From IMG/VR virus record IMGVR_UViG_3300048538_000042, positions 1 to 55,760 of that record: DNA of 55,760 nucleotides; one strand, 5' to 3'. The DNA is from a virus. Lineage: Duplodnaviria > Caudoviricetes. The notes under the pieces were generated by a model. It saw only the letters and a list, made by a program, of their open reading frames with translations. It had not been told where the DNA came from and ran no database searches. This document shows positions 1-55,760 of this stretch, piece by piece (positions within the stretch are counted from its first letter, which is position 1; every line of letters starts with the position of its first letter). The position numbers were made by a program, and so were the translations under genes.

Positions 1-123
1 GTCCCAGTAACGCCAGTCCCAGTAACGCCAGTCCCAGTAACGCCAGTCCCAGTAACGCCAGTTGCTATGGTTCCTATACCTCCTGTGCCTCCTGTGCCTC
101 CTGTGCCTCCTGTGCCTCCTGTG
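1..123 (-). repeat. Coding tandem repeats: 15-mer (TGVTG) x4 and 9-mer (GGT) x5
   Basis: GTCCCAGTAACGCCA x4 (1-60); CCTCCTGTG x5 (79-123). Confidence 0.95.
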
Positions 124-145
124 CCTGTTCCGACAACTTCACTTA
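1..145. repeat. Terminal overlap, copy 1 (circular assembly join)
   Basis: 1-145 matches 55598-55760 except that the 9-mer CCTCCTGTG occurs 5 times here and 7 times at the end. Confidence 0.95.
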
Positions 146-3100
146 ACGGTTTAACAACCTTACCGTTTTCGTACAAAGTATCGTTAATCACACCATTCGC
201 CGTAACACCAAGAGACGGATTACCGACATATGTAACACCGCCCTGTGTGTAAAGCGTGTTAGGGTCATACTGACCAAAAATAGAAACTACATTTGTGTCA
301 GTCCCAGTAACGCCAGTGCCTCCCAAAAGTGCCTCAGACGCTGTGGGACGCGCCGCATCAGCGTCATCTGTGCCACCACCAAGAAGCGTTTCAGAAGCTG
401 TCGTATCAACCACCGTTGCACCAGCAGCCGCAGCCGCATTCGCGTCACTGTTCTGAACAGCGTTCGTCGCATTGATTAAGTTGGCATTAGTTCCAGCCCC
501 AACTGCCGCCGTGAAACCCGTGTTTTCGTTAGTTAGTGTAAGATTCCCACCGACATTAGAAACCACTACATTCTGGTCCGTGCCCCCGAGTACAGCGTCC
601 TCAGTCCTCTGAAGATCCGATACCTTCGTCTCGTCGCCAGTTAAAGTATCGCCTGTGCTAAATGAACCCCCTACAGTAGCCGATTGATTCGTGTCGTTGT
701 CCGTAAGAACCAATTTACCTTCGTCATCCGTAGATACCGTGACATTTTCTCCAGACTGCAGAATCTCACTAGCGGTTAACTTTGCAACCGTTGTCTCATT
801 GCCAGTTAAAGTACCACCAACACCAAGCGCAAGGTCCGACGCCGAAGCCTCCGCAGAAGTGTCAAACTCATTACCCAACGCATCAAAAAACTTTCCTTGA
901 GTGCCCGTCTTCTTAGATTCGCCGACAGTCGTCAATAACCCGCCCAAATCATCATATCCAGAACCTGTCGCCTTTGCGTTGTCCACTGCGTTGTTATACG
1001 TTGCTAAGTTCTTTGCCGTATTAACTCCGGTTTCAATCGCGTCCGTTGTCACGGCAGCACCCGCTCCGGCAAGAGAACCCGTAACAAAATTACCACTGGC
1101 ATCTTGGAAAATGTTTAGTTTGTCGTCTCCCGTAAGATTAAGAACATTGTTTACCGCGTTAGACACAAACGCCGCCTCCGCAACCTCTTGAGCACCTTCA
1201 CCCAAAGCCTTACCTATCTTGCCCTTAATCGCTGCGTCCGTTGCACCCGTCGCAGAAACTTCAAGAATCGAACTCGCTAAAACTTCGTTGGCAAGATAAT
1301 CCAACGCACCTTGCTCACCAAGAATCCCAACAGCCTTCAAATACGTCGGGTTGTTCTGTAACTTACCCTCATCATATAACGTCTGAATAGCACCATCAGC
1401 CTGTTGTTTTGCTGCTTCAGTCGCCTCACCCGCACCCACAACACCTATAGCACCCAGAGCTAACGGATTACGAGTCATCATCATCACAGCCAGATCAACA
1501 AATTCTTCACCAACCTCTTGGCCCAGCTGAAGAGCCGTGCCCAATGTTGTTCCTGCTATCTCCAAATCTTGAGGCAATGTACCTAAAATCGCAGACGTGT
1601 TTTTTTCCGCAATCTCTCTGGGAGTCAGTATTTTCGACTGAAGTTTGTCCCCTAGACCACTGACAAACTCACCCGCCTTACCAACAATACCCTGTTGATA
1701 CGAGTCGAAATTCTTCATCTTGGTAGTTTCAGAGTCGTCTAAAAACGCTCCCGATTCACGACCAGCCTCACCAAACGACATCGAGTATTGATTCTCCGTG
1801 TAAGTTTCGTCCGCTAAAGCATTCTCTATCGCACGAAGAGCTTGGTCCTTCTGTATATCTACACCCTGTAACCCCTGACCAAGGCCCGTCAACATCCCAG
1901 GAAGGTACGCACCCGCTGTCTTTCGAGCCGCGTCTAAGAAACCGCTGTCCTCTGCAGAAGTCTCCGCACCAACAAAATTAGTAGCCGTAGTATCAACCTC
2001 CGGAGGCAACAACGCCGCTACATCCGCATCCGTAAGATCGTTGCCCTCTATCAAATTTAAAGTCGCAAGGGCCTCATCTACACCAATGTCCCCCGCACCC
2101 ATCTCACCCGTGAGATTAAGAAGCGCATCCGTAACATTGTTCGCACCACCTACAGTGTCTACTGTAATAGTCCCAGCATCCGCGCCCGTCTTTAAATCAA
2201 TCCCAGACAAAGCCTCCTGGTCTACATCAAAACCTAAATCGCTCAACGCAACCAAGTCTTGAGGCAAAATAGTGTCTCCCTCTTGGTAAATATCCGACAA
2301 ACCCAACTCCAGAGCCAACTGAGGAGTCATCGGACTGCCAACAGTAAGAGATGAATATTCCGCAGCAGGCAACGCACCAGGAACAAAGGTCCCAGGTCCG
2401 CCAGTCGGAATAAAAGGAGTCGTGTCTACAGCAGGAGCAAGATCCGTCGTGTAAACTCCACCATTCCACTCAAACGTATCGTTCCCCGCAGCGCGGTTCG
2501 CAGCAAACGCCTCGTCAAACGTCTGTTCCGTTACCGCAGCACCCGCAGCCGCACCCGTCTCAAACGTACCCGTCTCAGCATCAAAGCCAACCGAAGGTAC
2601 ATCCGTCGTCTCTCCAGTAACAATATTCTCCAGTAACTGCGTAAAACCAATAAACTCAGGTACATCCGTGCTGCCACCAGCAGCCGCTACCTCATCAGAA
2701 AACGTCTCCGCTACATAATCAGATACATTCCCTCCAAACGTCGGACCCTGGCTGTTGTCCTGCGGATCAATGCTGTAATCCCGGCCTACAGTATTAGAAT
2801 TAGGGTTCTTAACTACAGTATACCAATTCCCACTGTCATCCTGCTTGATTGTCCCAGCATCAGAACTCGCATCCCCCACCGCAACTCCGTAATAAGGACC
2901 GTCACTCTCCGACTCACGAACCTCCTTCGCATAAGCAGACTCACCCTTCTCCGCCCGCTCTTGAACCTTCTTCATCTCCCTGCGATCATCCGCATCCCTC
3001 GGCTCATACGTCCCAGCAATCATAGCCAGCTTACGGTCGTTCTCACGCTTCCAATCCGTGTAATCCTCATTCGCAATGCTCTTCACATTACCAAACGCAT

Positions 3101-3257
3101 CCTCAACCGTATAATTCCCACTACTCCTGCCCAAAACAACAGTCTCCGTAACAGGCGACGGACTCGTGTAACTAACCGCATTCCCACTATCGTCAAAGTC
3201 ATAGTTACTAACATTCAAACCAGTGTTCTTCTCAATCCAGCCGAATAACCCAACCAT
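1..3257 (-). CDS. 5' part of a giant (~1375 aa) acidic, Gly/Thr-rich protein spanning the contig join; probable virion/ejection-type protein
   Basis: GGAGA RBS then ATG at 3257 (MVGLFGWIEKNTGL...). The frame appears open to position 1 (absent from the ORF track because no stop lies in range) and continues through the overlap in the frame of 54727..55389. Contains FDEAFAANRAAGNDTFEWNGGVYTT and GEGAQEVAE motifs. Confidence 0.85.
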   Translation of the reverse strand, partial: MVGLFGWIEKNTGLNVSNYDFDDSGNAVSYTSPSPVTETVVLGRSSGNYTVEDAFGNVKSIANEDYTDWKRENDRKLAMIAGTYEPRDADDRREMKKVQERAEKGESAYAKEVRESESDGPYYGVAVGDASSDAGTIKQDDSGNWYTVVKNPNSNTVGRDYSIDPQDNSQGPTFGGNVSDYVAETFSDEVAAAGGSTDVPEFIGFTQLLENIVTGETTDVPSVGFDAETGTFETGAAAGAAVTEQTFDEAFAANRAAGNDTFEWNGGVYTTDLAPAVDTTPFIPTGGPGTFVPGALPAAEYSSLTVGSPMTPQLALELGLSDIYQEGDTILPQDLVALSDLGFDVDQEALSGIDLKTGADAGTITVDTVGGANNVTDALLNLTGEMGAGDIGVDEALATLNLIEGNDLTDADVAALLPPEVDTTATNFVGAETSAEDSGFLDAARKTAGAYLPGMLTGLGQGLQGVDIQKDQALRAIENALADETYTENQYSMSFGEAGRESGAFLDDSETTKMKNFDSYQQGIVGKAGEFVSGLGDKLQSKILTPREIAEKNTSAILGTLPQDLEIAGTTLGTALQLGQEVGEEFVDLAVMMMTRNPLALGAIGVVGAGEATEAAKQQADGAIQTLYDEGKLQNNPTYLKAVGILGEQGALDYLANEVLASSILEVSATGATDAAIKGKIGKALGEGAQEVAEAAFVSNAVNNVLNLTGDDKLNIFQDASGNFVTGSLAGAGAAVTTDAIETGVNTAKNLATYNNAVDNAKATGSGYDDLGGLLTTVGESKKTGTQGKFFDALGNEFDTSAEASASDLALGVGGTLTGNETTVAKLTASEILQSGENVTVSTDDEGKLVLTDNDTNQSATVGGSFSTGDTLTGDETKVSDLQRTEDAVLGGTDQNVVVSNVGGNLTLTNENTGFTAAVGAGTNANLINATNAVQNSDANAAAAAGATVVDTTASETLLGGGTDDADAARPTASEALLGGTGVTGTDTNVVSIFGQYDPNTLYTQGGVTYVGNPSLGVTANGVINDTLYENGKVVKPLSEVVGTGTGGTGGTGGTGGTGGIGTIATGVTGTGVTGTGVTGTGVTG

Positions 3258-3342
3258 ACTTCTCTCCTAAAAATCCATGAAAACACAATACCCCAATCCC
3301 AAATGAAAATACACCCGCGATTTTTCCAACCCAATGGGTCCC

Positions 3343-3597
3343 CTAATGTACCTGCGCCTTCTTCGCTCCACGCGTCCGACGATAACTCCGGTTCTTACTA
3401 GCAGAAAGCACCCCAAGATTCTTCCCACTGTTGTCCCTCGGGTTCCCGTTCCGATGAGTAACGTCCTTCCCATCACCCTTCTTTACCTTGCCAGACTTCA
3501 ATAACTTAGCTCGGGCCGCGTTCCTCGATGCTCGGTTCTTCTTCTGCTTGTCCGAGGAATGATAATTATCATACTCAGACCTATAATCTCGGCCCAT
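3343..3597 (-). CDS. Small basic HNH-like endonuclease
   Basis: KGDGKDVTHRNGNPRDNSGKNLGVLSASKNRS resembles the phage HNH signature; GGAG RBS before ATG 3597. Confidence 0.7.
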   Translation of the reverse strand: MGRDYRSEYDNYHSSDKQKKNRASRNAARAKLLKSGKVKKGDGKDVTHRNGNPRDNSGKNLGVLSASKNRSYRRTRGAKKAQVH

Positions 3598-3626
3598 GGT
3601 CCGTGCTCCTTTTGTTCTCAAACAGT

Positions 3627-3655
3627 ATTATACACGAATGAATCTACAACACCAA
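3627..3655 (-). promoter_or_regulatory. Putative sigma70-type promoter for the HNH / giant ORF / terL (late) operon
   Basis: TTGGTG-17 nt-TATAAT on the minus strand. Confidence 0.6.
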
Positions 3656-3874
3656 CATTATAGGGGGCGCACAGCACAACCGTCCCGCAAATAAGGGGGT
3701 GATGGGGGTCGGACCCCTGCACAATATCAATAGGTATTCGGCCCAGTAACCCCTAACGCATGTGTGTAGCAGAGTGGTCATTGGTTCTAGGACCTGTGCT
3801 CTGGGTAAGCTCGTTTCTATACCCCCGGGGGTGCTGCAAGTTCCAGAAAAGTTTTAGTCTCGACCCTTTGTTTT

Positions 3875-3904
3875 TTGGTGGGAACAGATGCGATGTATTA
3901 TACT
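3875..3904 (+). promoter_or_regulatory. Putative rightward promoter for the structured RNA and early genes
   Basis: TTGGTG-18 nt-TATACT; the core TGTATTATACTG is 11/12 identical to TGTATAATACTG of the divergent promoter. Confidence 0.45.
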
Positions 3905-3909
3905 GCTGC

Positions 3910-4250
3910 TTAGTCTGGGCGACGCCCGGGCTGTCGTGAACCAAGCCCCTTCAGGTCTTGGCCCTTCGGGCTTCCATCCCTGTCGCACTCTCGTGAACAG
4001 AAGGAGAGTTGATCGGGAATCGTCCGAGGCGACGGGTCAACCGTGCAGTGGCGCGGTCGTCCCGCTCGGCTCGGACTGTTCGACGGACAAGACCGCGACC
4101 CAGCCACCTACAGTATCCGAGGTCATGATGGTCGCGGTTGTTGTCCTGCGTTGGTAATCACGAGTTGCGCGACGCGGTTTCCAGCCTTTGTGTGGCCTGT
4201 CGAACGTCCTCGCTGACGCTGCGGGCGTCGGCCACGGGCTGGTATCGCCC
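3910..4250 (+). ncRNA. Putative multi-stem structured non-coding RNA, family unknown
   Basis: At least 8 helices, several with G-U pairs that work only in the + orientation, e.g. 3912-3920/3924-3932, 3979-3986/4029-4036, 4040-4046/4051-4057, 4091-4100/4130-4139; no credible ORF. Confidence 0.6.
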
Positions 4251-4299
4251 TGTTAGTTCAGTGTGCTGTACTCAATGTTGGTTAAGGGGCTCAAGATGA

Positions 4300-4321
4300 A
4301 TAGATCCCTGTGGGGATCTAT
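4300..4321. other. Perfect 9-bp hairpin
   Basis: ATAGATCCC-tgtg-GGGATCTAT. Confidence 0.7.
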
Positions 4322-4499
4322 AGTTATTTATTTATTGAAATGTCCTGCCGCTTTCCGTACCGGACGCGGAAACTTAAACCCTGAGTAAAGGTGGAACGCT
4401 GCATCAAACCTCAAGTGGTTTGACGCTGCATTCCATTGACTCAGGGTTTAAGTTTGCGTTGAGTTACTTCATCGGCCAGACGTTTCAATAAAAAAACTA
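4321..4499. ncRNA. ~170-nt rod-like inverted repeat with central bubble (6S-RNA-like architecture, or a DNA cruciform)
   Basis: Perfect 17-bp arm 4370-4386/4439-4455; 14-bp arm 4331-4344/4479-4492; 12x12-nt bubble 4351-4362/4461-4472. Confidence 0.5.
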
Positions 4500-4532
4500 A
4501 AGTCGATATTAACTCAAACATAGGAGGCCAGC

Positions 4533-4787
4533 ATGGCTACTTCAAACTATACTAACACAGACGATATGCCCATCAGCCTGAACATCACAGTTCGGGAACT
4601 CAAGTCAATCGAACGCCTTATGACTGAGCACGGCTCAGAGTGGAACGGTTGGAGTACCGAACGTCAACTGCACAAGGATCTTCGTAAGGTTCTAACACAG
4701 GCGTTCGTATCTATGGCCGACAGCAGCAGCTACGGTCAACGCGAGTATGACTCAGTCGTCGAGTACAAAGCGAAAGACGCCGCTTAA
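4533..4787 (+). CDS. Hypothetical early protein
   Basis: AGGAGG RBS, 84 aa ORF. Confidence 0.8.
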   Translation: MATSNYTNTDDMPISLNITVRELKSIERLMTEHGSEWNGWSTERQLHKDLRKVLTQAFVSMADSSSYGQREYDSVVEYKAKDAA

Positions 4788-8058: not shown

Positions 8059-8375
8059 TGTTTAGTTTTGATTGTGTGGATAGGCAGATGGAGTTGGCTT
8101 GGGATCCGGCGTCATACAAGACGCGGGCTGGTGCGGCGAAGGGGTTGTATCGAGCGTTGTGCGACTGGTGTCGCAAGGTTGGCATGGATCCGAGTTACGA
8201 GGTTCACATCAAGACCCCAGAGGAGCGCAAGGAGCAGGGGTACGAAAAGGTTTGGCATGTATCATTTGAGGCTGGTCCGTATGAGTGGGCTGTGTTTGCT
8301 TCGATGCAGATCCCTGATTGCGAGTGGGGATATGTTGAGCCTTATTATTCTTTTGATTTAGATTTTGTGGAGTGA
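8058..8375 (+). CDS. Hypothetical protein (VSFEAGPYEWA motif)
   Basis: GAGGAGG RBS, coupled start. Confidence 0.8.
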   Translation: MFSFDCVDRQMELAWDPASYKTRAGAAKGLYRALCDWCRKVGMDPSYEVHIKTPEERKEQGYEKVWHVSFEAGPYEWAVFASMQIPDCEWGYVEPYYSFDLDFVE

Positions 8376-12192: not shown

Positions 12193-13634
12193 TTCTGCGC
12201 CTCTTCTCCTAAAACTTTCGCACTGATGTCGATTTTATTGCGAAGTGTTTCCACGATCCGTTCGTCGATTGTGCCTTCCGATATGAGATCAATGTATGTC
12301 ACGTTATTCTTTTGTCCGATCCGGTGGCAACGATCCTCACTTTGTATACGCTCTTCAAGTGAATAGCTGTTGGCATAGTAAACCACGAGGTTAGCTTCTG
12401 TCAACGTGAGCCCGTAGCCAGCGGTTGCTGGGTTGCCTACGAAGAACTTAAGCGGGTGGTTTGGGTCTTGGAAGTTTTTAACGATGCGGTTGCGTTCATC
12501 GTCGGATGTATCTCCGTAATATGATGCAGCGGATCCTTCCCCAAACTTATCGTTCAGCATGGCTGTAATTTGTTGGATGTCGTACCGGAAGCGCGACCAG
12601 ATGATTGCTTTACCATCGTGCTCTTCCATGATCTCGAACAGCGCATCCATGCGGGATGATTTAAAGGTCAGGATGTCTCCGTCATCTGTCTTGAGGTGGC
12701 CGGACATAATCTGTTGCAGCCTGAGTAGCTGGGTAATGACCGCGGGCGCAGACACGAGGTCCCCGTTATCGAGGAGCAAGAGCGCCTGTTCTTTGATCTG
12801 GTTGTACATCTTCAGTTGCTCGTCGGTCAGGGTGACGTATCGAGCGGTGTAGACTTTATCGGGGAGATCGAGGCAGTCTTTTTTGAGCACTCGATAGGAA
12901 AAGTTTTCGATGCGCCACGTTAATTCATCTAGGTTTTTGAACCCGACGATTTGCTGGAATGAATTATGTCCCATGGTGCGCTTTTGCGTGACGGCATACC
13001 GTCCTTGGAACGCATAGAAACTATCATACCCTAGCAGCCCCTCCCTTAAAAATTCACACTGCGAATAAATATCCATCGGACTTTTTGTAACTGGAGAGCC
13101 TGTCAACAATCTTTTGTACTTGAAGTTCGACGCGATTTTCATCAGGTTCTTGGTGCGCTTGGCCTTATGGTTTTTGATGGTGGTTGATTCGTCGATTGCG
13201 ATTAGACCATTTGAGCCCAGCGCACGACCCATCCACTCACCAGCGGTTTTACCTTTGACCGAGGAGAACGCTTCGACGTTCATGACAAAGATTGTCAGTC
13301 CGTTGAACCTGTCTTTGACGGAGCGCATTTCTTCTTGTTGTTTTTTGTTTGGCGAAGACACCCAGCGAATCACTCGATGCTCAACGTCATCGGACATATG
13401 CTCGGGGATTTCTTTGGCTACCCAGTTGCGATAGACGCCCTTGGGCGCGATGACCAAAGCAAAATCGATGAGCCCTGCCTGGTACAGCATACCCATGTTG
13501 TCGATCAGAACTTTGGATTTGCCTGTTCCCATCTCCATAAACAAGCCGAACTCGATGCGATCCCACCCTGTGTTCAGAGCATGTTTTTGATGATCAAATG
13601 GTTTTAGTTTAAAATTGTAGTTGACATTCATCAT
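12162..13634 (-). CDS. SNF2-family (superfamily 2) DNA helicase
   Basis: MEMGTGKS, IDES, LTGSP, QSEDRCHRIGQ motifs. Confidence 0.95.
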   Translation of the reverse strand: MMNVNYNFKLKPFDHQKHALNTGWDRIEFGLFMEMGTGKSKVLIDNMGMLYQAGLIDFALVIAPKGVYRNWVAKEIPEHMSDDVEHRVIRWVSSPNKKQQEEMRSVKDRFNGLTIFVMNVEAFSSVKGKTAGEWMGRALGSNGLIAIDESTTIKNHKAKRTKNLMKIASNFKYKRLLTGSPVTKSPMDIYSQCEFLREGLLGYDSFYAFQGRYAVTQKRTMGHNSFQQIVGFKNLDELTWRIENFSYRVLKKDCLDLPDKVYTARYVTLTDEQLKMYNQIKEQALLLLDNGDLVSAPAVITQLLRLQQIMSGHLKTDDGDILTFKSSRMDALFEIMEEHDGKAIIWSRFRYDIQQITAMLNDKFGEGSAASYYGDTSDDERNRIVKNFQDPNHPLKFFVGNPATAGYGLTLTEANLVVYYANSYSLEERIQSEDRCHRIGQKNNVTYIDLISEGTIDERIVETLRNKIDISAKVLGEEAQKWLQLKPSKK

Positions 13635-13650: not shown

Positions 13651-13707
13651 CTTCTTTACGGATAGCACGAGGCTACCGTATAAATCAACCCTGAAGAGGA
13701 AAAACTT

Positions 13708-14268
13708 ATGAACGATATATTTGAAGACTACTTCGACGAATCGGAGGCGTTAGCGTCTGTCGATACTGGAACCGGAAAGCAGCTAAGTCAACTGGTTCGA
13801 ACCCTGCGTAATGTTGAGCAGCAAATCAGCGATGCGGAGGAGCACTTGAAGGCACTCAAGCAAGAGAAGCACAAACTCTCTGTCGAGAACATTCCAGTTC
13901 TGATGGACGAGATGGGCGTTGAGCGTCTTGATGTGGACGGTGCGATAGTCGAGCGCAAGATGATTGTGTCTGCCTCGATACCCAAGGACCGCAAGGACGA
14001 AGCCTTGGGTTGGTTACGCGACAACGGTCTGGACGATATCATCAAGAACGATATCACAGTTTCGTTTGGTAAGGGCGAGGACAATGTTGCGGGGGACGTT
14101 GTTGGTCTGCTGCAAGATCGTGGTTTCGATCCACAAACCAAAACCCACGTTCATCCATCCACACTCAAAGCGTTTGTCAAAGAGCGCGTGACGGATGGTA
14201 AACCGCTTGACCTCGATTTGTTCGGGGCATTCATTTCAAACACCGCACAGATCCGGAGGAAAGCATAA
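13708..14268 (+). CDS. Conserved phage replication-module protein (coiled coil; VHPSTLKAFVKE)
   Basis: GAGGA RBS; motif common next to phage SSB genes. Confidence 0.85.
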   Translation: MNDIFEDYFDESEALASVDTGTGKQLSQLVRTLRNVEQQISDAEEHLKALKQEKHKLSVENIPVLMDEMGVERLDVDGAIVERKMIVSASIPKDRKDEALGWLRDNGLDDIIKNDITVSFGKGEDNVAGDVVGLLQDRGFDPQTKTHVHPSTLKAFVKERVTDGKPLDLDLFGAFISNTAQIRRKA

Positions 14269-18370: not shown

Positions 18371-18726
18371 AACGAGATGAAGTGTTGGACACAGCCAAAG
18401 AACTGATCAACGGTCAGAGGGCCGCGGACTACGGTGATGCATACGATAACCATGGCCGGATTGCGGAGGGGTGGAACATTATTATTGGCGGCGCATTAAA
18501 GAGCCACGGTCATGTAACTCCTGCGCATGTTGCGCTGATGATGGATTGGGTAAAGAGTGCGCGTTTGGTTGAGAACATCGACCACGAGGATTCGTGGGTT
18601 GATAAGGCTGGTTACAGTGCATTGGGATCGGAGCACATAGACAGGGATAAGAAAGCCGTGCCGTCTATTTTATTACCTCGACACAAAGAAATCATCCAAA
18701 GGATGCGTGAAAAGAATGCAAAGTAA
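18367..18726 (+). CDS. DUF6378-type protein
   Basis: NGQRAADYG...VALMM..VK.AR...DSWVDKAGY. Confidence 0.8.
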   Translation: MKRDEVLDTAKELINGQRAADYGDAYDNHGRIAEGWNIIIGGALKSHGHVTPAHVALMMDWVKSARLVENIDHEDSWVDKAGYSALGSEHIDRDKKAVPSILLPRHKEIIQRMREKNAK

Positions 18727-20650
18727 TTTATTTGGCAGTGCGCTGCATCACCAGATTAAAAACGAGTTGGATCTGATCGACGCTGACTGGAACATTCCAC
18801 CGGAGTATCCCGATCTTACGGGCTACAAAGAAGTGGCAGTGGATCTGGAAACCTATGATCCCAACATTAAAACCTTGGGTCCAGGATGGGCTCGCAAAGA
18901 CGGGCATATCATAGGGATTGCTGTGGCAGCGGGGGAGTATAAAGGCTACTTCCCGATCCGCCATGAAAACTCCCACAACCTTGACCCAAAGTTTACGCTG
19001 CGCTGGCTCAAGAAGCAGATGTCGGTGCCTGATATGAATGTGATCATGCACAACGCGACCTACGATGCGGGATGGATGAGGGCCGAGGGCATAGAAATCA
19101 AGGGTCGGATTATCGACACGATGATTACTGGCGCACTGGTCAACGAGAACCGCTGGTCCTTTGGCCTCGATGCTATGGCCCGAGACTTTGTTTCGCTGCG
19201 CAAGAACGAGAAGCTGCTGCAAGCTGCCGCCAAGGAGTGGGGCGTGGATCCCAAGGCAGAGATGTACAAGCTGCCGCCTAAGTATGTAGGAGCTTACGCA
19301 GAGCAAGATGCGGTGGCTACGCTTAAACTGTGGCAGGCTCTCAAGATCGAGCTAGAGGATCAGGAACTCTGGCATATCTGGGACATAGAGAACGGGTTGA
19401 TCCCCTGCATGTTGGACATGCGGACCCAAGGGGTGCGGGTGGATCTCGACAAGGCAGAGCGGAACAAGAAGTTTATTCGAAAACAATCCAAGCTGATTCG
19501 CGGACAGATTGAAAAAGAAGCTGGGATGGAGGTGGATATCTGGGCCTCTGCATCCATAGCTAAAATGTTCGACAAGCTCGACATGGAATACCCAAGAACC
19601 CAGATCAAAGAAGACGAGGAAACAGGGAAGGTAACGGGTGGATCTCCGTCGTTTACCAAAGCGTGGCTGAACAACCACCCCGCAGAAATCTGCCAGCAGT
19701 TGGTCAAGCTGCGTGAGTTCGACAAGGCGGACGCCACGTTTATCGACAGCATCCTGCGGCACGAGCACAACGGTCGCATCCATACTGAACTGCACTCCAC
19801 CCGTAGGGATGAGGGCGGTACGGTAACGGGTCGGTTCTCTTCCTCAAACCCCAACCTACAGCAAATCCCGGCGCGGGATCCCGATATTAAGAAGATGATC
19901 CGCGGATTGTTTATTCCAGAGGAGGGCATGAAGTGGGGATCGTTTGACTATTCGAGCCAAGAACCGAGGCTCTTGGTGCATTTTGCGGCGAGCGTACCGT
20001 CTGCGTTGCGTAGTCATGTGGTTGATAACGTAGTGGATGAGTTCAATAGTGGCGATGTGGATCTGCACCAGATGGTTGCGGATCTTGCAAGCATTACGCG
20101 TAAGCAAGCCAAGACGGTTAACCTTGGGATTATGTACGGTATGGGCGTAGCCAAGCTGGCAGATCAGCTTGGCATTCCCTCAGAGGATGCCAAGGATTTA
20201 ATCAAGCGGCACCGCAGCAAGGTTCCGTTTGTTAAGCAGCTTGCGGACATGGCTACCAAACAGGCGGACAGTAACGGTCAGATACGCACTCTGCTGGGCC
20301 GTAAGTGCAGGTTTCACCTGTGGGAGCCCGTCACCTTCGGAACAGGCAAACCCCTGCCTCACGAGGAAGCTCTGAAGGAGTACGGTAAAAACATCAAGAG
20401 GGCCTTCACATACAAGGCGCTGAACCGCCTGATCCAAGGATCAGCGGCGGACCAAACCAAGAAAGCTATGCTTGATTGTTACAACGAGGGACTTACTCCT
20501 ATGCTCACGGTTCATGATGAGCTATGCTTTAACATAGAGAGCCAAGAGCAAACGGCTAGGATTAAGGAGATCATGGAGACAGGCGTTCCGCTCAAAGTCC
20601 CTTCGAAGATTGACGTAGACATAAAGGATGATTGGGGAGAGATCGAATGA
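18716..20650 (+). CDS. polA: Family A DNA polymerase with 3'-5' exonuclease
   Basis: DLET, HNATYD, YAEQD exonuclease motifs; TGRFSSSNPNLQQIP, DYSSQEPR, KTVNLGIMYGMG, VHDE. Confidence 0.97.
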   Translation: MQSNLFGSALHHQIKNELDLIDADWNIPPEYPDLTGYKEVAVDLETYDPNIKTLGPGWARKDGHIIGIAVAAGEYKGYFPIRHENSHNLDPKFTLRWLKKQMSVPDMNVIMHNATYDAGWMRAEGIEIKGRIIDTMITGALVNENRWSFGLDAMARDFVSLRKNEKLLQAAAKEWGVDPKAEMYKLPPKYVGAYAEQDAVATLKLWQALKIELEDQELWHIWDIENGLIPCMLDMRTQGVRVDLDKAERNKKFIRKQSKLIRGQIEKEAGMEVDIWASASIAKMFDKLDMEYPRTQIKEDEETGKVTGGSPSFTKAWLNNHPAEICQQLVKLREFDKADATFIDSILRHEHNGRIHTELHSTRRDEGGTVTGRFSSSNPNLQQIPARDPDIKKMIRGLFIPEEGMKWGSFDYSSQEPRLLVHFAASVPSALRSHVVDNVVDEFNSGDVDLHQMVADLASITRKQAKTVNLGIMYGMGVAKLADQLGIPSEDAKDLIKRHRSKVPFVKQLADMATKQADSNGQIRTLLGRKCRFHLWEPVTFGTGKPLPHEEALKEYGKNIKRAFTYKALNRLIQGSAADQTKKAMLDCYNEGLTPMLTVHDELCFNIESQEQTARIKEIMETGVPLKVPSKIDVDIKDDWGEIE

Positions 20651-43828: not shown

Positions 43829-44290
43829 TTAAGCGAGGTTATTGTTTTGCTGATACAAAATTGTAAAACGAACTAAACCCGCATTTGTTGCAGCAGAGCC
43901 AGTAACAGTTAAACGAATATCCGCTGTGCCTGTGTCTTGCCATGCTAATGCAGCACCTGCTTGCGTGGTTGGATATTTACGTCCCGCGTCTGTTCCACTT
44001 GCAAATGTATTCAAAATAGTTGCTGCACCACCTACGGTATCACCAACACTCAAGTTTGTTGAGGCATTAGCCGCCGTGATAATATCAATAACACAGTCAA
44101 TAATTTGAGAATTTGCAGGAATTACAACGTCAGTAACTTGTGCAGCTACTGCTCCGCCAGATAGATCCACTGAAAATGTCTGAGCCATAACGACTTGACC
44201 AGTGTTCTTAATATTTGATCCAAGGGTTGTACCCGTGGTTTCTTTAATGGTCCCTGCTTTAATAGGACCTGAAAAAGTTGTCGTACCCAT
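43829..44290 (-). CDS. Putative capsid decoration / minor capsid protein
   Basis: MGTTTFSGPIKAG; directly after the major capsid gene, AGGAG RBS. Confidence 0.7.
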   Translation of the reverse strand: MGTTTFSGPIKAGTIKETTGTTLGSNIKNTGQVVMAQTFSVDLSGGAVAAQVTDVVIPANSQIIDCVIDIITAANASTNLSVGDTVGGAATILNTFASGTDAGRKYPTTQAGAALAWQDTGTADIRLTVTGSAATNAGLVRFTILYQQNNNLA

Positions 44291-44364
44291 GTCGATCTCC
44301 TGTCTAGGTAAATGTCAGCCGCACCTTGCGACTGTCAGGGATGACTAAACAATACAGAAGAATA

Positions 44365-50795: not shown

Positions 50796-53267
50796 TCACC
50801 CCCGCATCATCTTCTGTCGCTGCACCTCAATACGATCTTGATTAGTATCGTCCCGCTGGGCCGCGATGTCTTCTATGCTTTCAATACGAGCCGCATCCGT
50901 CGCCGCACGTTGCTGCATCTTATTCATCTCTAGCTGAATCTGAGCCGCATCGTCAATCGACTTACGCTGCAAGTCTTGCTGCTTTATCCCAAGCTCCTGC
51001 ATACGAATCTGTACCAACGGATCCTGCATAGGGTCCTCTCCCTGTGGAGTAATCTTCGGCATCAAGTCGTTCATCAACTGCATTTCCTGTAAAGCGACCA
51101 TCTTTTCGATCTCCTCCGGATTCTGCATCTGCTGCTGCACTTCCATAATCTGCTGCTGTGCCGTTTGTGGATCCACCGCGCCGGACTGAGCCATCAACTG
51201 CACTTGAGATATTAAACCCTGAACCTGTGTCATAACCATCTCACGAGCCTTCTTGGAAATATGCTCCTGAAGGTGCCCCATTAAAATTCCCATAACCTGC
51301 GGTGAAGTCATAACAATAGGCGTCTTCATAAACATAACGTGAAGTTCGATATGTGCGTCGTGGTCCTGACCATCAAACGCCATCAACAACTCACCCGTTA
51401 ACGCACGAGCGTTTTCAATTAACGGATCAAGTGGCTGCGGCTGCGGAGGCGGTGGCAGGATCTCGTCAATGTTCTGTACCTCCAGAGCCTGATACATGCG
51501 ACGGAACGCTGCGTGGAGGTTGTGTACCTGAGGATTGGACTGTGCCAACTGTAACTGCGTCTGAGCAAGCGTAACCCGCTGCGCCATAGAAAAGATGTTC
51601 GGGTCACTCACTGGAATCACATCAACACGACCATCGAAGTCCGCCGCCATGACCGTGCGATCCCCACCCGCTACATCATATGGGTACTCTTGAGGCAAGT
51701 TATCACGGAAAATCCTAGCTAAAACACGGAACTCGTTCTTCTGCGAATAGTGCAACCGTTTGTGAATAGCTGACATAACCTTCATGCCGCGCTCTAACAA
51801 CGCCACAGTAGTCCCTACAGGGGCCTCCTGGTTCATGTTTGAGGTCTGCTGGTCTGCCAGTGACACAAAACGTCTTCCGTTCTCCACAAGCGTTCCTAGA
51901 AGCTGTCCTAGCGTTGCGGAAGGCTCCTTATACGGCAGCGGCACAAGAGCATCCCGAATGTTGCCACCAGGAGCGTCAATGTCCCGAAATTCTCCAGGTT
52001 GTAAGGGTTCGTCATCATTACGAACCCTTACGCCCCGAGCCTTGAACCCAGCTGGGAGGTTTGCCAAGGTTCCGGCGTCGATCAACTGGCGAAGGATGCT
52101 GGTAGCTGCACGACCCAATCCACCAATCATGTGAATCAAACCAAAGCCATAGAACCCTAAACCAGGCATAAACTTGTAGTGAACAAAATACTGCTGCTTT
52201 TTAGCAAGATCCGCATTCTCTTCAAAATTACGACGTATCGACAGAATTTTCCCCGAACCCTCGTCAATCGTCACAATATACGGCAGCGCAATACCCGTAG
52301 GTTCCCCGTCAGGAGACATGTCCTCAAAACCTTCAAGGTCTAAGGCAACATGCATCTCTAAAATCGTATAGACCTCGTCAGTGTACCCCTTCGAAGTACC
52401 CTGAATGCTGTTGATTTTTTGACGAACCTCGTCCTCTTCTTCGTCGTACTTGCTGACTTCAACGTCACGATAGAACCCTGCAATCTGCATCTTGCGAAGT
52501 TCATTCGCGTCCATACGCAAAACATGAGTAACACGCGCCGCTGTGTGCAGATCAGACGCTGCATACGAAACAACCAAGTCTTGAGCAGGAACAAACTTAG
52601 AAACCGCTCTCTGCTTTGCTTCATCAAAGTAAATCTTCTTAAAACAAGAACCCGACAGCGGTAAATAAAACAAAAGCTGATCCATGTCCGGATCGAACTC
52701 TTCCATCACTTCCATAATCTGGTAGTTCATGAAGTCCTTGACTCGCGATGCCTGCTCCTCACGAGCCGCATCCTGCATACCAAGAACCTGAGTTTGAACA
52801 GGGCCACCCGCAGGTAGCAGTTCTTTATACGCCTGCGCCTGAAACTGAGTAACACTCTCACTAATTAACGGGTGCGTGACCCCAGAAGCTCCTTCAAACG
52901 GTTGGCTGCGCTCTTCGTACTTAACTCCAAGCTGATCCAAACCTTTTGTGTAAGTCTCTTCCCACTCTGAACGAGAGTCCATGTCATCTTCGTAAGACGC
53001 ACGAAGATCCGACGAAATTTCTCCAAGATAATCTTCACCCAAAAACTCCGCTAAGTTGTCGTTATGCGCAGGTTGAATCATCGATTCTTCCATCGCAATG
53101 ATCTCTTCAAGACTTCGAACTACTGCCCCACCTTGACCGTCTTCAACAACTTCGGCCCCATTAGGGAACATCTCAATCTGCTCCTCAACCGGAACCTCAA
53201 CAGACGCCTCATTCGGCATCATGTCCTCGGGACGAATCCCTGAATCTACAAGAGGTGGCAGTGCCAT
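50796..53267 (-). CDS. Portal protein
   Basis: 823 aa directly after terL; Gln-rich C-terminal barrel-like extension as in P22-like portals. Confidence 0.85.
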
Positions 53268-54730
53268 CAGTAATACTCCCGTTTACGACGATATTCGTCA
53301 TGTTCTTCTTCTTCGCCAAGCAGAGAAACAAAACCGCCCTGCCTAAAACGCATCAGTGCTAACGTCATGCTATCACAAAAGTCGTCATGATCGCCATTAG
53401 GAAATGAAACTACTTCTTCGATAACTTCATCCGCAAATTTCTTGTCATTTGGGGCCCATACTACACCAGCTTCGAACAATGGCGCAACCATGTGCATTCT
53501 AGTGACCTTATCTCGCCCTTTTCCCGGCGAAAATCCTAACGCAGGAATACCCCGAAGCCGCAACTCGTCAATAAGCGGTGTACCCGTCGCTTTCGCTTCG
53601 ACCACAACCATGTCCGGCTCCCAGTATTCGTGTTCTTCATGCGCAACCTCCTTCAGTTCAGGGAAATTCCACCGACCTCGCCGCGCATCTAACAATATCA
53701 AGTTGTCAGACCCACCCTCCTCCGGCTCAAACACGCCCCAAGTCGTAATCGCGCTGTAATCCGCCGATTCTTTCTTGGAAAACGCCGTATCATACGACTG
53801 AATGATGTATTTAACCGGGGGAATGTCCTTCTTATCCCACTCCTGCCACCATTCACGCTTAATAATTGCAGAATCAGAACTCGTCGGCGTCTGCTGCCAC
53901 TGCGCATTCCATTTTTGCACAGGCAAGGACGCCTTAATTCCCAATAATGCGTCTTTTTCCCAGAACTCAGGCCATAACGGCCTGTCTGACGGCAAAATAG
54001 CAGGAAATTCCACAACCTCCCACTGATCCGCCATGACATCACTGCCCTGCGCGGCCAATAAACGGCCTGTCAAGTCTTTTTTACCCCATCGAGTCATAAC
54101 AATTATGATCGCACCGCCAGGCTGAAGACGCTGACGGGGTCCAGAAGTGTACCACTCATACGCATTGTCAAACGCACTCTCACTCAAAGCGTCCTGCTCC
54201 GAGTGAGGGTCGTCAATTACAAACAAATCCGCACCACGACCCGTAACCGCAGCACCAACACCCGCCGCAAAGTACTCGCCGCCCTTGTCAGTCTGCCATT
54301 TACCCGCGCCCTTGTTGTCTTCCTTCAAGTTAGTATCAGGAAAAATATCCTTATATTGCGGATCATCTATTAAATCTCGAACCTTACGACCAAACCTAAC
54401 CGCTAACTCCGTGTTGTGCGTAGCCTGAATGATCTTTAACTTCGGATTTCGGCCCAAAAACCACGCAGGCATCAAAAAACTGGCAAACTCAGACTTAGAA
54501 TGTCGAGGAGGCATGTTGATAATCAACCGCTTCAACTTACCCTGCGCAACCAACTCCAACTTTTCAGCAATAATACGATGATGCTGGCCCTCAATAAAGT
54601 TCTCGTACACATGATGAGCAAACGGCATGAAATAATCATGCGCCTTTTCACGAGTATCCAGCTTCTTCTTGGCCTCTGTTAAAGCCAAAATCTCCTTTAA
54701 GGCGTCCTCGGGAAGTGCTTGTAAGTTCAT
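53267..54730 (-). CDS. terL: Terminase large subunit
   Basis: LIINMPPRHSKS, TGRGADLFVIDDP, VMTRW, SYDTA, FPNGDHDDFCDS. Confidence 0.95.
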   Translation of the reverse strand: MNLQALPEDALKEILALTEAKKKLDTREKAHDYFMPFAHHVYENFIEGQHHRIIAEKLELVAQGKLKRLIINMPPRHSKSEFASFLMPAWFLGRNPKLKIIQATHNTELAVRFGRKVRDLIDDPQYKDIFPDTNLKEDNKGAGKWQTDKGGEYFAAGVGAAVTGRGADLFVIDDPHSEQDALSESAFDNAYEWYTSGPRQRLQPGGAIIIVMTRWGKKDLTGRLLAAQGSDVMADQWEVVEFPAILPSDRPLWPEFWEKDALLGIKASLPVQKWNAQWQQTPTSSDSAIIKREWWQEWDKKDIPPVKYIIQSYDTAFSKKESADYSAITTWGVFEPEEGGSDNLILLDARRGRWNFPELKEVAHEEHEYWEPDMVVVEAKATGTPLIDELRLRGIPALGFSPGKGRDKVTRMHMVAPLFEAGVVWAPNDKKFADEVIEEVVSFPNGDHDDFCDSMTLALMRFRQGGFVSLLGEEEEHDEYRRKREYY

Positions 54731-55760
54731 GAGCCGTTCATCAAGTCCTCAGAAGGCAATACCGCGGCCCCCGTACCTTGCAACTCGGCCAGTTCTCGTA
54801 ACCGCGCAAGATCCAAATTCGTGCCAATGTAAGGATTTCCGTATCTCAAACCTCCTGTGGGCGATAAATAACTCGTAGGTTCATTAAATACCGGAGCCGC
54901 AGGAGTCTGATCAACACCAGGTTGTGGCCTGTAGAAAGAATACAACCCAGTTTGCTGTGGCTGGTAATACGGAGCAACCACAGGGCGCATCCTTCCTCCC
55001 GCACCAAGATCCGCAATGCCAGAAGTATACCCAGGTTGAGTCTCACCAACAGGATCAGTAGTAGGATCGCCGTCACTATCCGGAGGGGTATAAGAAGTCG
55101 GAGCCGCTACTGCGGGTTGTGGTTGACCTACTGCGGGTTGTGGTTGAACTTCTCCGTCGACTATATCATCATACTCTATGACATACTTCGCATCAACTGC
55201 TGCTTGTGTTCCTGTGGCCTGTGGCGTGGAGGTCGCCTTTACCGTAGGATCTACCGTAGGATCTACCGTAGGATCTACCGTAGGATCTACCGTAGGATCT
55301 ACCGTAGTAGTAGTCGTTCCGTCTACCGCAGCATTCACGTTAACTGTAACGCCACTATTGGTTACAACAGCCGTGTTGTTAACCGCCACATTGTCCGTAG
55401 TAGTTTCACCCGTAACATTGTTTTTCGTGGTAATCGTAGCGTTTCCTTGTGAATCTGTAGCCGTCGTAATCGTTACATTTCCGTCACTCGAGTTTGTAAC
55501 CGTCGAGTCGTTGTTGGCCGTGATCGTCGTGTTGGCGTCCCCAGTAACGCCAGTCCCAGTAACGCCAGTCCCAGTAACGCCAGTCCCAGTAACGCCAGTC
55601 CCAGTAACGCCAGTCCCAGTAACGCCAGTCCCAGTAACGCCAGTCCCAGTAACGCCAGTTGCTATGGTTCCTATACCTCCTGTGCCTCCTGTGCCTCCTG
55701 TGCCTCCTGTGCCTCCTGTGCCTCCTGTGCCTCCTGTGCCTGTTCCGACAACTTCACTTA
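54727..55760 (-). CDS. 3' part of the giant join-spanning protein (low-complexity Thr/Gly/Pro tail)
   Basis: Frame of 54727..55389 stays open to the window end (SEVVGTGTGG...); its stop overlaps the terL ATG. Confidence 0.85.
   Translation of the reverse strand, partial: SEVVGTGTGGTGGTGGTGGTGGTGGTGGIGTIATGVTGTGVTGTGVTGTGVTGTGVTGTGVTGTGVTGTGVTGDANTTITANNDSTVTNSSDGNVTITTATDSQGNATITTKNNVTGETTTDNVAVNNTAVVTNSGVTVNVNAAVDGTTTTTVDPTVDPTVDPTVDPTVDPTVKATSTPQATGTQAAVDAKYVIEYDDIVDGEVQPQPAVGQPQPAVAAPTSYTPPDSDGDPTTDPVGETQPGYTSGIADLGAGGRMRPVVAPYYQPQQTGLYSFYRPQPGVDQTPAAPVFNEPTSYLSPTGGLRYGNPYIGTNLDLARLRELAELQGTGAAVLPSEDLMNGS
55240..55307 (-). repeat. 12-bp tandem repeat x5.7 (TVDP)
   Basis: TACCGTAGGATC x5 plus a partial copy. 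Confidence 0.95.
55541..55760. repeat. 15-mer x7.8 and 9-mer x7; includes terminal overlap copy 2 (55598-55760)
   Basis: GTCCCAGTAACGCCA 55553-55657; CCTCCTGTG 55676-55738. Confidence 0.95.

Follow-up and report, generated by a model that had tools for sequence, protein, structure and literature searches.

Which molecule acts at the GC-rich, strongly folded stretch that precedes the first early gene of this phage, a new structured RNA or a folded DNA signal? A preliminary description had proposed a single novel phage RNA of about 340 nt at positions 3910 to 4250, starting right after a promoter candidate. The window, by which we mean the whole stretch of DNA that was analysed (55,760 nt), is the IMG/VR record IMGVR_UViG_3300048538_000042, a linear sequence of 55,760 bases with an estimated completeness of 97%.

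Genomic setting of the 911-nt gap

The window encodes a large terminase (53267-54730, minus strand), a portal protein (50796-53267, minus strand), a DNA polymerase (18707-20650, plus strand), a primase and helicases, and thus represents a tailed dsDNA phage. The gap under study extends for 911 nt (3622-4532) between a small HNH gene (3343-3621, minus strand; PF13392, phrog_4590) and the first early gene, which starts at position 4533 on the plus strand. No convincing gene was found in it in the ORF list or by comparison with Pfam and PHROG, and a blastn search of deposited phages with positions 3600-4540 yielded no match. The GC content reaches 0.62 to 0.64 at 3901-4200, compared with approximately 0.5 in the flanks. 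An ORF of 89 codons is open at 3888-4157, but it matched nothing in Pfam or PHROG and, when compared with L169, a relative of this part of the gap, it showed five 1-nt indels within 3990-4157. Hence it is not a conserved gene, in agreement with the earlier view that the stretch is non-coding.

An ORF of 1085 aa (3-3257, minus strand) without a Pfam or PHROG match is open at the contig start, and at the opposite end of the contig an open-ended ORF of 343 aa (54727-55758, minus strand) immediately precedes the large terminase. Both may be one gene split by the contig ends; their frames fail to join exactly when the ends are abutted.

Folding of positions 3910 to 4250

When folded as RNA and compared with dinucleotide-preserving shuffles, positions 3910-4250 rendered z-scores of -4.66 for the plus strand and -6.10 for the minus strand, and none of 100 shuffles folded as well on either strand. 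The longer segment 3905-4535, folded as minus-strand DNA, reached -9.38 with respect to its shuffles. The folding beyond chance that had been proposed was thus confirmed, for both strands. All ten helices of the preliminary description were complementary at their coordinates (62 Watson-Crick and 6 G-T pairs), the long stem 4085-4100/4130-4146 requiring one bulge, although some of them either lose to a covarying fold or vanish in relatives (see below).

A search of the whole window against Rfam 15 at the gathering threshold returned the Mu-gpT-DE RNA as the sole match (44288-44340, minus strand; 64.8 bits, gathering score 49), adjoining the head genes. Over 3300-4600, only chance-level hairpin matches were obtained at E values up to 10, so that, as anticipated, no Rfam family matched the stretch at either setting. 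Neither tRNA nor tmRNA was found in the window, also as described.

A conserved multi-helix core element

The only widely conserved part of the stretch was a core of 74 nt (3916-3989, plus strand), written here in the early-gene sense. This core is a multi-helix junction with near-invariant joining bases. It contains a closing stem, P1 (3919-3923/3982-3986), followed by P2 (3928-3932/3976-3980) and P3 (3933 with 3975, and 3938-3940/3972-3974), and two hairpins, A (3941-3961) and B (3962-3970). Since RNAalifold on a MAFFT alignment recovered only the two hairpins, the full structure was read from the alignment by hand and tested on model-made alignments. The resulting covariance model, R1, contains 23 pairs over 84 positions and derives from 90 trimmed copies. 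Run against the whole window, it produced one match, at 3916-3989 on the plus strand (84.5 bits, E value of 5.9e-22).

Covariation was quantified on alignments made with R1, which are hence fitted to the model and favour it; in these, 112 distinct copies from bacterial genomes had 93.7% of cells paired (82.5% in shuffles), 265 double-change cells (79.8 in shuffles) and a covariation score of 0.284 (0.095 in shuffles). None of 500 shuffles was as high, and slid controls paired in at most 54.8% of cells. Similarly, the 83 distinct viral copies, including that of the window and aligned in the same way, showed 94.3% of cells paired against 78.1%, 308 double-change cells against 90.7, and a score of 0.411 against 0.114. 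Rfam contained nothing over the core in the plasmid F leading region or in five other loci. The core is a new, well-supported structural family absent from Rfam, and it is tied to the known Frpo/ssi units of plasmids, as described below.

These hundreds of compensatory changes, a hairpin-loop length that varies by 4 to 18 nt across the family, the poorer folding of dinucleotide-preserving shuffles, and the lack of a family match and the five indels of ORF 3888-4157 make it most improbable that the folding is a by-product of the high GC content or that the ORF encodes a protein, even if the GC content of 0.62 to 0.64 and the open frame of 89 codons could suggest so.

The covariation-supported fold competes with two of the helices first proposed, the 5' hairpin 3912-3932 and the junction closure 3979-3986/4029-4036, neither of which holds. 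For its part, the 3' strand of P1 (3982-3986) has two possible partners, 3919-3923 and a 5-mer of identical sequence at 4030-4034; the latter pairing, contained within 3979-3986/4029-4036, is only partly kept in L169 and L131.

Variable part and upstream block

Past position 3989 the sequence is swapped between lineages. A lineage-specific chain of GC-rich hairpins, recognised in MFE folds and by compensatory changes, occupies 3990-4250 on the plus strand, and includes a domain at 4022-4076 with the hairpin 4040-4057, the long stem at 4085-4146 and the nested stems at 4181-4242. It had no homologue in L003, the closest gene-level relative, whose neighbouring genes are 90 to 95% identical to those of the window and which shares nothing with it downstream of 3989. 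Relatives of this variable part were L261 (identical), L169 (equal to L133 and L239), L131 and L191. In a comparison restricted to the few that differ from the window (L169 and its equals, L131 and L191), compensatory changes supported the long stem (4085-4099/4131-4146) and the nested stems 4181-4186/4237-4242 and 4192-4197/4230-4235 of the original proposal, as well as an additional helix, 4022-4028/4070-4076, absent from the earlier list. The helix 4204-4209/4223-4228 was invariant among these few relatives, and the proposed long-range pair 3934-3939/4158-4163 was lost in L169 and L131. The compensatory changes indicate that the whole leader consists of successive folds under selection, in a modular arrangement.

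Further downstream, a consensus scan detected a terminator-like hairpin with a 9-bp stem and a T-rich run (4300-4321, plus strand), a single site where 1.8 were expected in shuffles and thus weak alone. Directly upstream of the first early gene, positions 4327-4496 form a long, imperfectly paired hairpin, for which the MFE fold has 38 bp, with a self reverse-complement match of 72% over 170 nt and compensatory changes with respect to L191. It is the largest hairpin downstream of the element in the window, and it occupies the position of the plasmid promoter stem-loop. A consensus scan and inspection by eye revealed no sigma-70-like hexamer pair in it, bearing in mind that the promoter rules of the host may differ, and inspection by eye revealed no convincing sigma-54 boxes. 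The region 3990-4500 is a lineage-specific structured spacer plus a long hairpin.

The long hairpin contains an internal 7 x 7 bubble with the same 7-mer on both arms, in direct and not inverted orientation. L191 has retained this bubble, and the compensatory changes fall in the flanking stem. Single-strand promoters have a mismatched region of which the bubble is reminiscent, but no -35/-10 pair was detected here.

Conservation of the block upstream of the core (3622-3915) was confined to the phage lineage that carries the HNH gene. This gene served to collect 15 syntenic viral contigs, all of which aligned to the gap from 3622 to approximately 3989 but not beyond. The promoter candidate of the preliminary description, a -10-like sequence, lies on the plus strand in an insertion of about 40 nt (3888-3927) whose end extends into the start of the core. 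Of the 15 syntenic loci, only the window and L005 had this segment complete; it was partial in L015, L006, L009 and L011, and entirely absent from nine. L157 likewise carries it. A simple promoter scan did not flag the candidate, which does not hold up in this comparison.

A stretch of about 40 nt at approximately 3640-3680 was near-invariant in all 15 syntenic phage loci. On its minus strand, a TATAAT with a TTGGTT 17 nt upstream was recognised by eye about 12 nt before the ribosome-binding site of the HNH gene and, judging from these motifs, it is probably the promoter of the HNH gene and late operon.

Distribution and gene neighbours

Pattern scans built on the invariant bases of 3916-3989 matched 81 stretches of viral sequence; in metagenomes at least 120 further matches were obtained, and in named bacterial genomes 116. 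Altogether, at least 288 distinct instances of the core element were collected from phage, metagenome and bacterial loci. A copy from Pseudomonas matched 3,631 plasmid records (2,740 of them conjugative), mostly from Escherichia and Klebsiella.

No universal neighbour gene was found among the 288 instances listed. An HNH gene divergent from the element accompanied 41 of them, corresponding to the phage lineage of the window, and a small terminase gene, also divergent, accompanied 22. An ArdC anti-restriction gene was located about 300 nt downstream in 28 instances, on the same strand in 27 of them, and a cro-like HTH gene just upstream in 24, on the same strand in 22 of the 26 cluster members. 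The DNA downstream of the element was more structured than that upstream in 58 of 71 sampled instances.

These orientations favour an alternative that we regard as unlikely, though a serious one, namely that the core serves the early operon as a structured 5' leader RNA, on the plus strand. Such an RNA might promote put- or nut-like read-through of the downstream hairpins and of 4300-4321, or else act as a stabiliser or decoy. In its favour, in most dsDNA contexts the element and the genes downstream of it point the same way, as with ArdC, which also argues against a DNA signal; in 22 of the 26 cluster members the element follows a same-strand cro-like gene, which is the position of nutR and putR in lambdoid phages; and a terminator-like hairpin lies downstream of it. 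The HK022 put and lambda nut antitermination RNAs have some 70 to 85 nt and several stems, and, by description, the element resembles them in size and in being placed between an early promoter, or a cro-like gene, and terminator-like hairpins. Against the leader RNA, the promoter-like segment 3888-3927 is missing from most relatives.

Some loci contained several copies. At L117 (5668-6049), two copies of the element face each other and bracket a small ORF-like stretch, and likewise facing pairs were observed in L099, L115, L111, L098, L101, L119 and L147, which are GC-rich viral contigs; the facing copies of L117 and similar contigs are 200 to 600 nt apart. Co-oriented copies were found within one segment of about 100 kb of Pseudomonas sp. 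LS-2 scaffold4 (approximately 304-400 kb; L286, L361, L363 and L387), which suggests an integrated conjugative element with many units. Several co-oriented copies were also present at L306, L372 and L379, and multi-copy chromosomal segments held up to four R1 matches in one 8-kb locus. Upstream of ardC (for example in L163, L179, L222 and L288), the element and the ardC start are separated by a long inverted repeat, rich in GC, that is conserved among alphaproteobacterial contigs from metagenomes; this repeat is a candidate for a single-strand promoter of another sequence class.

The core element in plasmid F

R1 matched plasmid F (L400) at 8091-8176 (74.1 bits) and 13479-13564 (67.3 bits). 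Each match begins 20 nt inside one of two 559-nt repeats, 89% identical to each other, which precede ssb and the ygeA-side genes. According to Couturier 2023 (PMC9849209), these repeats hold Frpo2, on the ssb side, and Frpo1. Another IncF plasmid contained three R1 matches in its leading region, one of them upstream of ssb. Frpo1 and Frpo2 (ssp1a and ssp1b), together with ssi1-3, are class-1 single-stranded-DNA promoter units of the leading regions of IncF and IncI plasmids.

GC contents of 56.7% and 58.0% are given for Frpo2 and Frpo1 in PMC13478746, and the only F interval that reproduced both values was 8297-8453 of L400 with its partner 13686-13842 (157 nt). This stem-loop interval starts 120 nt after the core element, so that the element appears to lie outside the promoter boundaries as published. 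An upstream junction element is not mentioned in the passages considered of PMC11541004, PMC9849209, PMC12672017, PMC13478746, PMC7736820, PMC6294495 and the preprint 10.64898/2026.01.09.698686.

The core in F runs in the same sense as the leading genes, which are templated by the transferred strand according to Samuel 2024 (PMC11541004, section 8). Thus, the transferred strand carries the reverse complement of the element. As reported in PMC12672017, transcription in the IncI1 plasmid pESBL starts in the promoter stem-loops (5' RACE), and F RNA-seq agrees. With the F stem-loops lying about 120 nt downstream of the element, the transcript of that unit excludes it, which argues against a leader RNA and, the element being upstream of a stem-loop class with mapped transcription starts, sets it apart from put and nut.

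The locus of the window resembles the Frpo units in its 74-nt core, homologous by R1 (84.5 bits, versus 74.1 and 67.3 for the F copies), in its layout (element, GC-rich hairpins, long hairpin and first gene) and in the orientation of the genes relative to the element. It differs from them in that 3990-4530 has no similarity to the plasmid loci; in that the published promoter is the stem-loop of about 157 nt placed 120 nt past the element in F; in that no -35/-10 pair was detected in the long hairpin 4327-4496 (scan and inspection by eye); and in that it belongs to a dsDNA phage and not to DNA that enters single-stranded.

Orientation in Microviridae

A search of deposited phages with the core element yielded matches in Microviridae only. 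R1 matched KT264808.1 (73.8 bits) and MH572438.1 (58.8 bits) over its full length, in both cases in an intergenic position and on the strand opposite all annotated genes. In the small IMG/VR contigs L134, L159 and L087, which encode a Phage_F capsid protein, and in the related contigs L086 and L089, the large ORFs were all antisense to the element. Thus, the element was antisense to every large gene in the seven Microviridae genomes examined.

Microviruses package the coding-sense strand. What is packaged in all seven genomes is hence the reverse complement of the element, and the same is found on the transferred strand of F. The packaged microvirus strand cannot be transcribed until its complement exists, an indication of complementary-strand synthesis and not of promoter function. 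The start of complementary-strand synthesis is, most simply, the function common to Microviridae and F. A leader RNA fits poorly here, since normal microvirus transcripts carry the opposite sense; in this the element also departs from put and nut.

Wobble pairs and RNA-library contigs

The preliminary description had taken an excess of G-U pairs on the plus strand as a sign of selection on RNA. In the helices of the window this excess is real (6 G-T versus at most 1 A-C), and it favours a leader RNA over a DNA signal. Family-wide, however, it disappeared, with 55 G-T versus 47 A-C in one count and 20 versus 19 in a second one, so that there is no plus-strand RNA signature. The wobbles are symmetric and not minus-strand biased, and neither DNA strand is positively supported, a point against the DNA signal as well. 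By helix, the wobbles of P1 to P3 favour the plus strand and those of hairpin A the minus strand (11 A-C versus 1 G-T in 226 cores), the totals being equal. The loop of hairpin B reads as GNA (GAA, GTA or GCA) on the minus strand and as UNCG on the opposite one, which favours neither strand.

Symmetric wobbles, together with the fact that each strand folds far better than its shuffles, would agree with a reading in which both strands act: the minus-strand DNA fold would recruit an enzyme, and the nascent plus-strand primer or transcript would refold into a stable primer or R-loop, by analogy with RNA II at ColE1-type origins. We consider this quite improbable. The reading is purely inferential, and neutral transitions in weakly selected pairs would also produce symmetric wobbles, even though transcripts of class-1 single-strand promoters are reported to prime complementary synthesis in part of the Fraikin 2026 preprint.

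Contigs from RNA libraries of three studies cover 3606-3974, 4000-4252 and 4261-4349; they come from four runs and are contigs only, without strand or ends, and the uncovered parts carry no meaning. They count in favour of a leader RNA and against a DNA signal but may represent DNA carry-over.

Comparison with known initiation signals

Like G4 oric, the phiX174 primosome assembly site and the plasmid ssi signals, the element family is hairpin-rich, intergenic and located on the packaged strand of ssDNA phages (7 of 7 genomes), a position that is a feature of the microvirus copies and inapplicable to the window itself. Its proposed role, starting the complementary strand, would also be that of the Microviridae complementary-strand origins. 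However, R1 run on G4 and phiX174 with filters off gave a best match of 8.3 bits (E value of 1.9), which did not coincide with the annotated G4 origin (3970-3998). This lack of model similarity speaks against the DNA signal, and the junction architecture with its near-invariant joining bases also distinguishes the element from both origins; should the element prove to be a priming signal, neither G4 nor phiX174 represents its type.

At the minus-strand origin of filamentous phages, RNA polymerase recognises folded ssDNA and makes the first primer. The element could be likened to it by description, in that folded ssDNA is proposed to be recognised by a conserved host enzyme; it differs in having no evident promoter-like hexamers.

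DISCUSSION

The stretch is non-coding, structured and without an Rfam match, as the preliminary description had it. Its conservation, in contrast, is modular, and its core is shared with plasmids. A single RNA of about 340 nt is unsupported because unrelated mobile elements share the core by the hundred and the hairpins after it are lineage-specific, because the core sits in the repeat units that hold the single-stranded-DNA promoters of F, and because it is antisense to every gene in ssDNA phages, with no family-wide G-U bias. The RNA reading of the stretch is the less likely one.

Since the core is common to ssDNA phages and to the plasmid DNA that enters first, folded DNA that starts copying is a likelier explanation than a new phage RNA. 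We thus favour, with a confidence that stops slightly short of even, a core that is a DNA signal of the single-strand-initiation or origin type. The element 3916-3989, one copy of a widespread and strongly conserved structure of some 75 to 100 nt, and the hairpins up to about 4500 would be the phage counterpart of the structured units of plasmid leading regions. The element would fold as single-stranded DNA on the minus strand, complementary to the early genes, and conserved host replication or transcription machinery would recognise the fold and begin synthesis of the opposite strand. In this dsDNA tailed phage, the place that it would mark, where the late and early operons diverge, would be the origin of replication or the region of entry. 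Against this DNA signal, besides the observations already mentioned, the window encodes a tailed dsDNA phage, and we know of no single-stranded entry stage for such phages.

A bolder form of the origin-type signal, which we hold to be doubtful but worth stating, is that the junction of 75 nt is a hitherto unrecognised, near-universal recognition element for a conserved proteobacterial host factor and represents a new class of complementary-strand or origin signal. Such a signal would be common to Microviridae, to the transferred strands of conjugative plasmids and ICEs, and to the heads of dsDNA-phage early regions, and in tailed phages the region would be exposed, in the form of ssDNA or an R-loop, when infection or replication is only just beginning.

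For the window alone the outcome is more modest: the supposed new RNA turns out, in large part, to belong to a family linked with a plasmid system that is already known. The interest rests on the reach of this family across microviruses, plasmids and tailed phages. If a DNA signal of this kind is confirmed, one folded element would link ssDNA-phage infection, conjugation and early infection by tailed phages. It would provide an unstudied module beside the F single-strand promoters, themselves under active study, and the first candidate complementary-strand origin for gokushoviruses. R1 would then serve as a marker with which unannotated sequence could be searched for leading regions, origins and minus-strand origins, and the orientation of the element alone might reveal which strand of an unknown element enters the cell.
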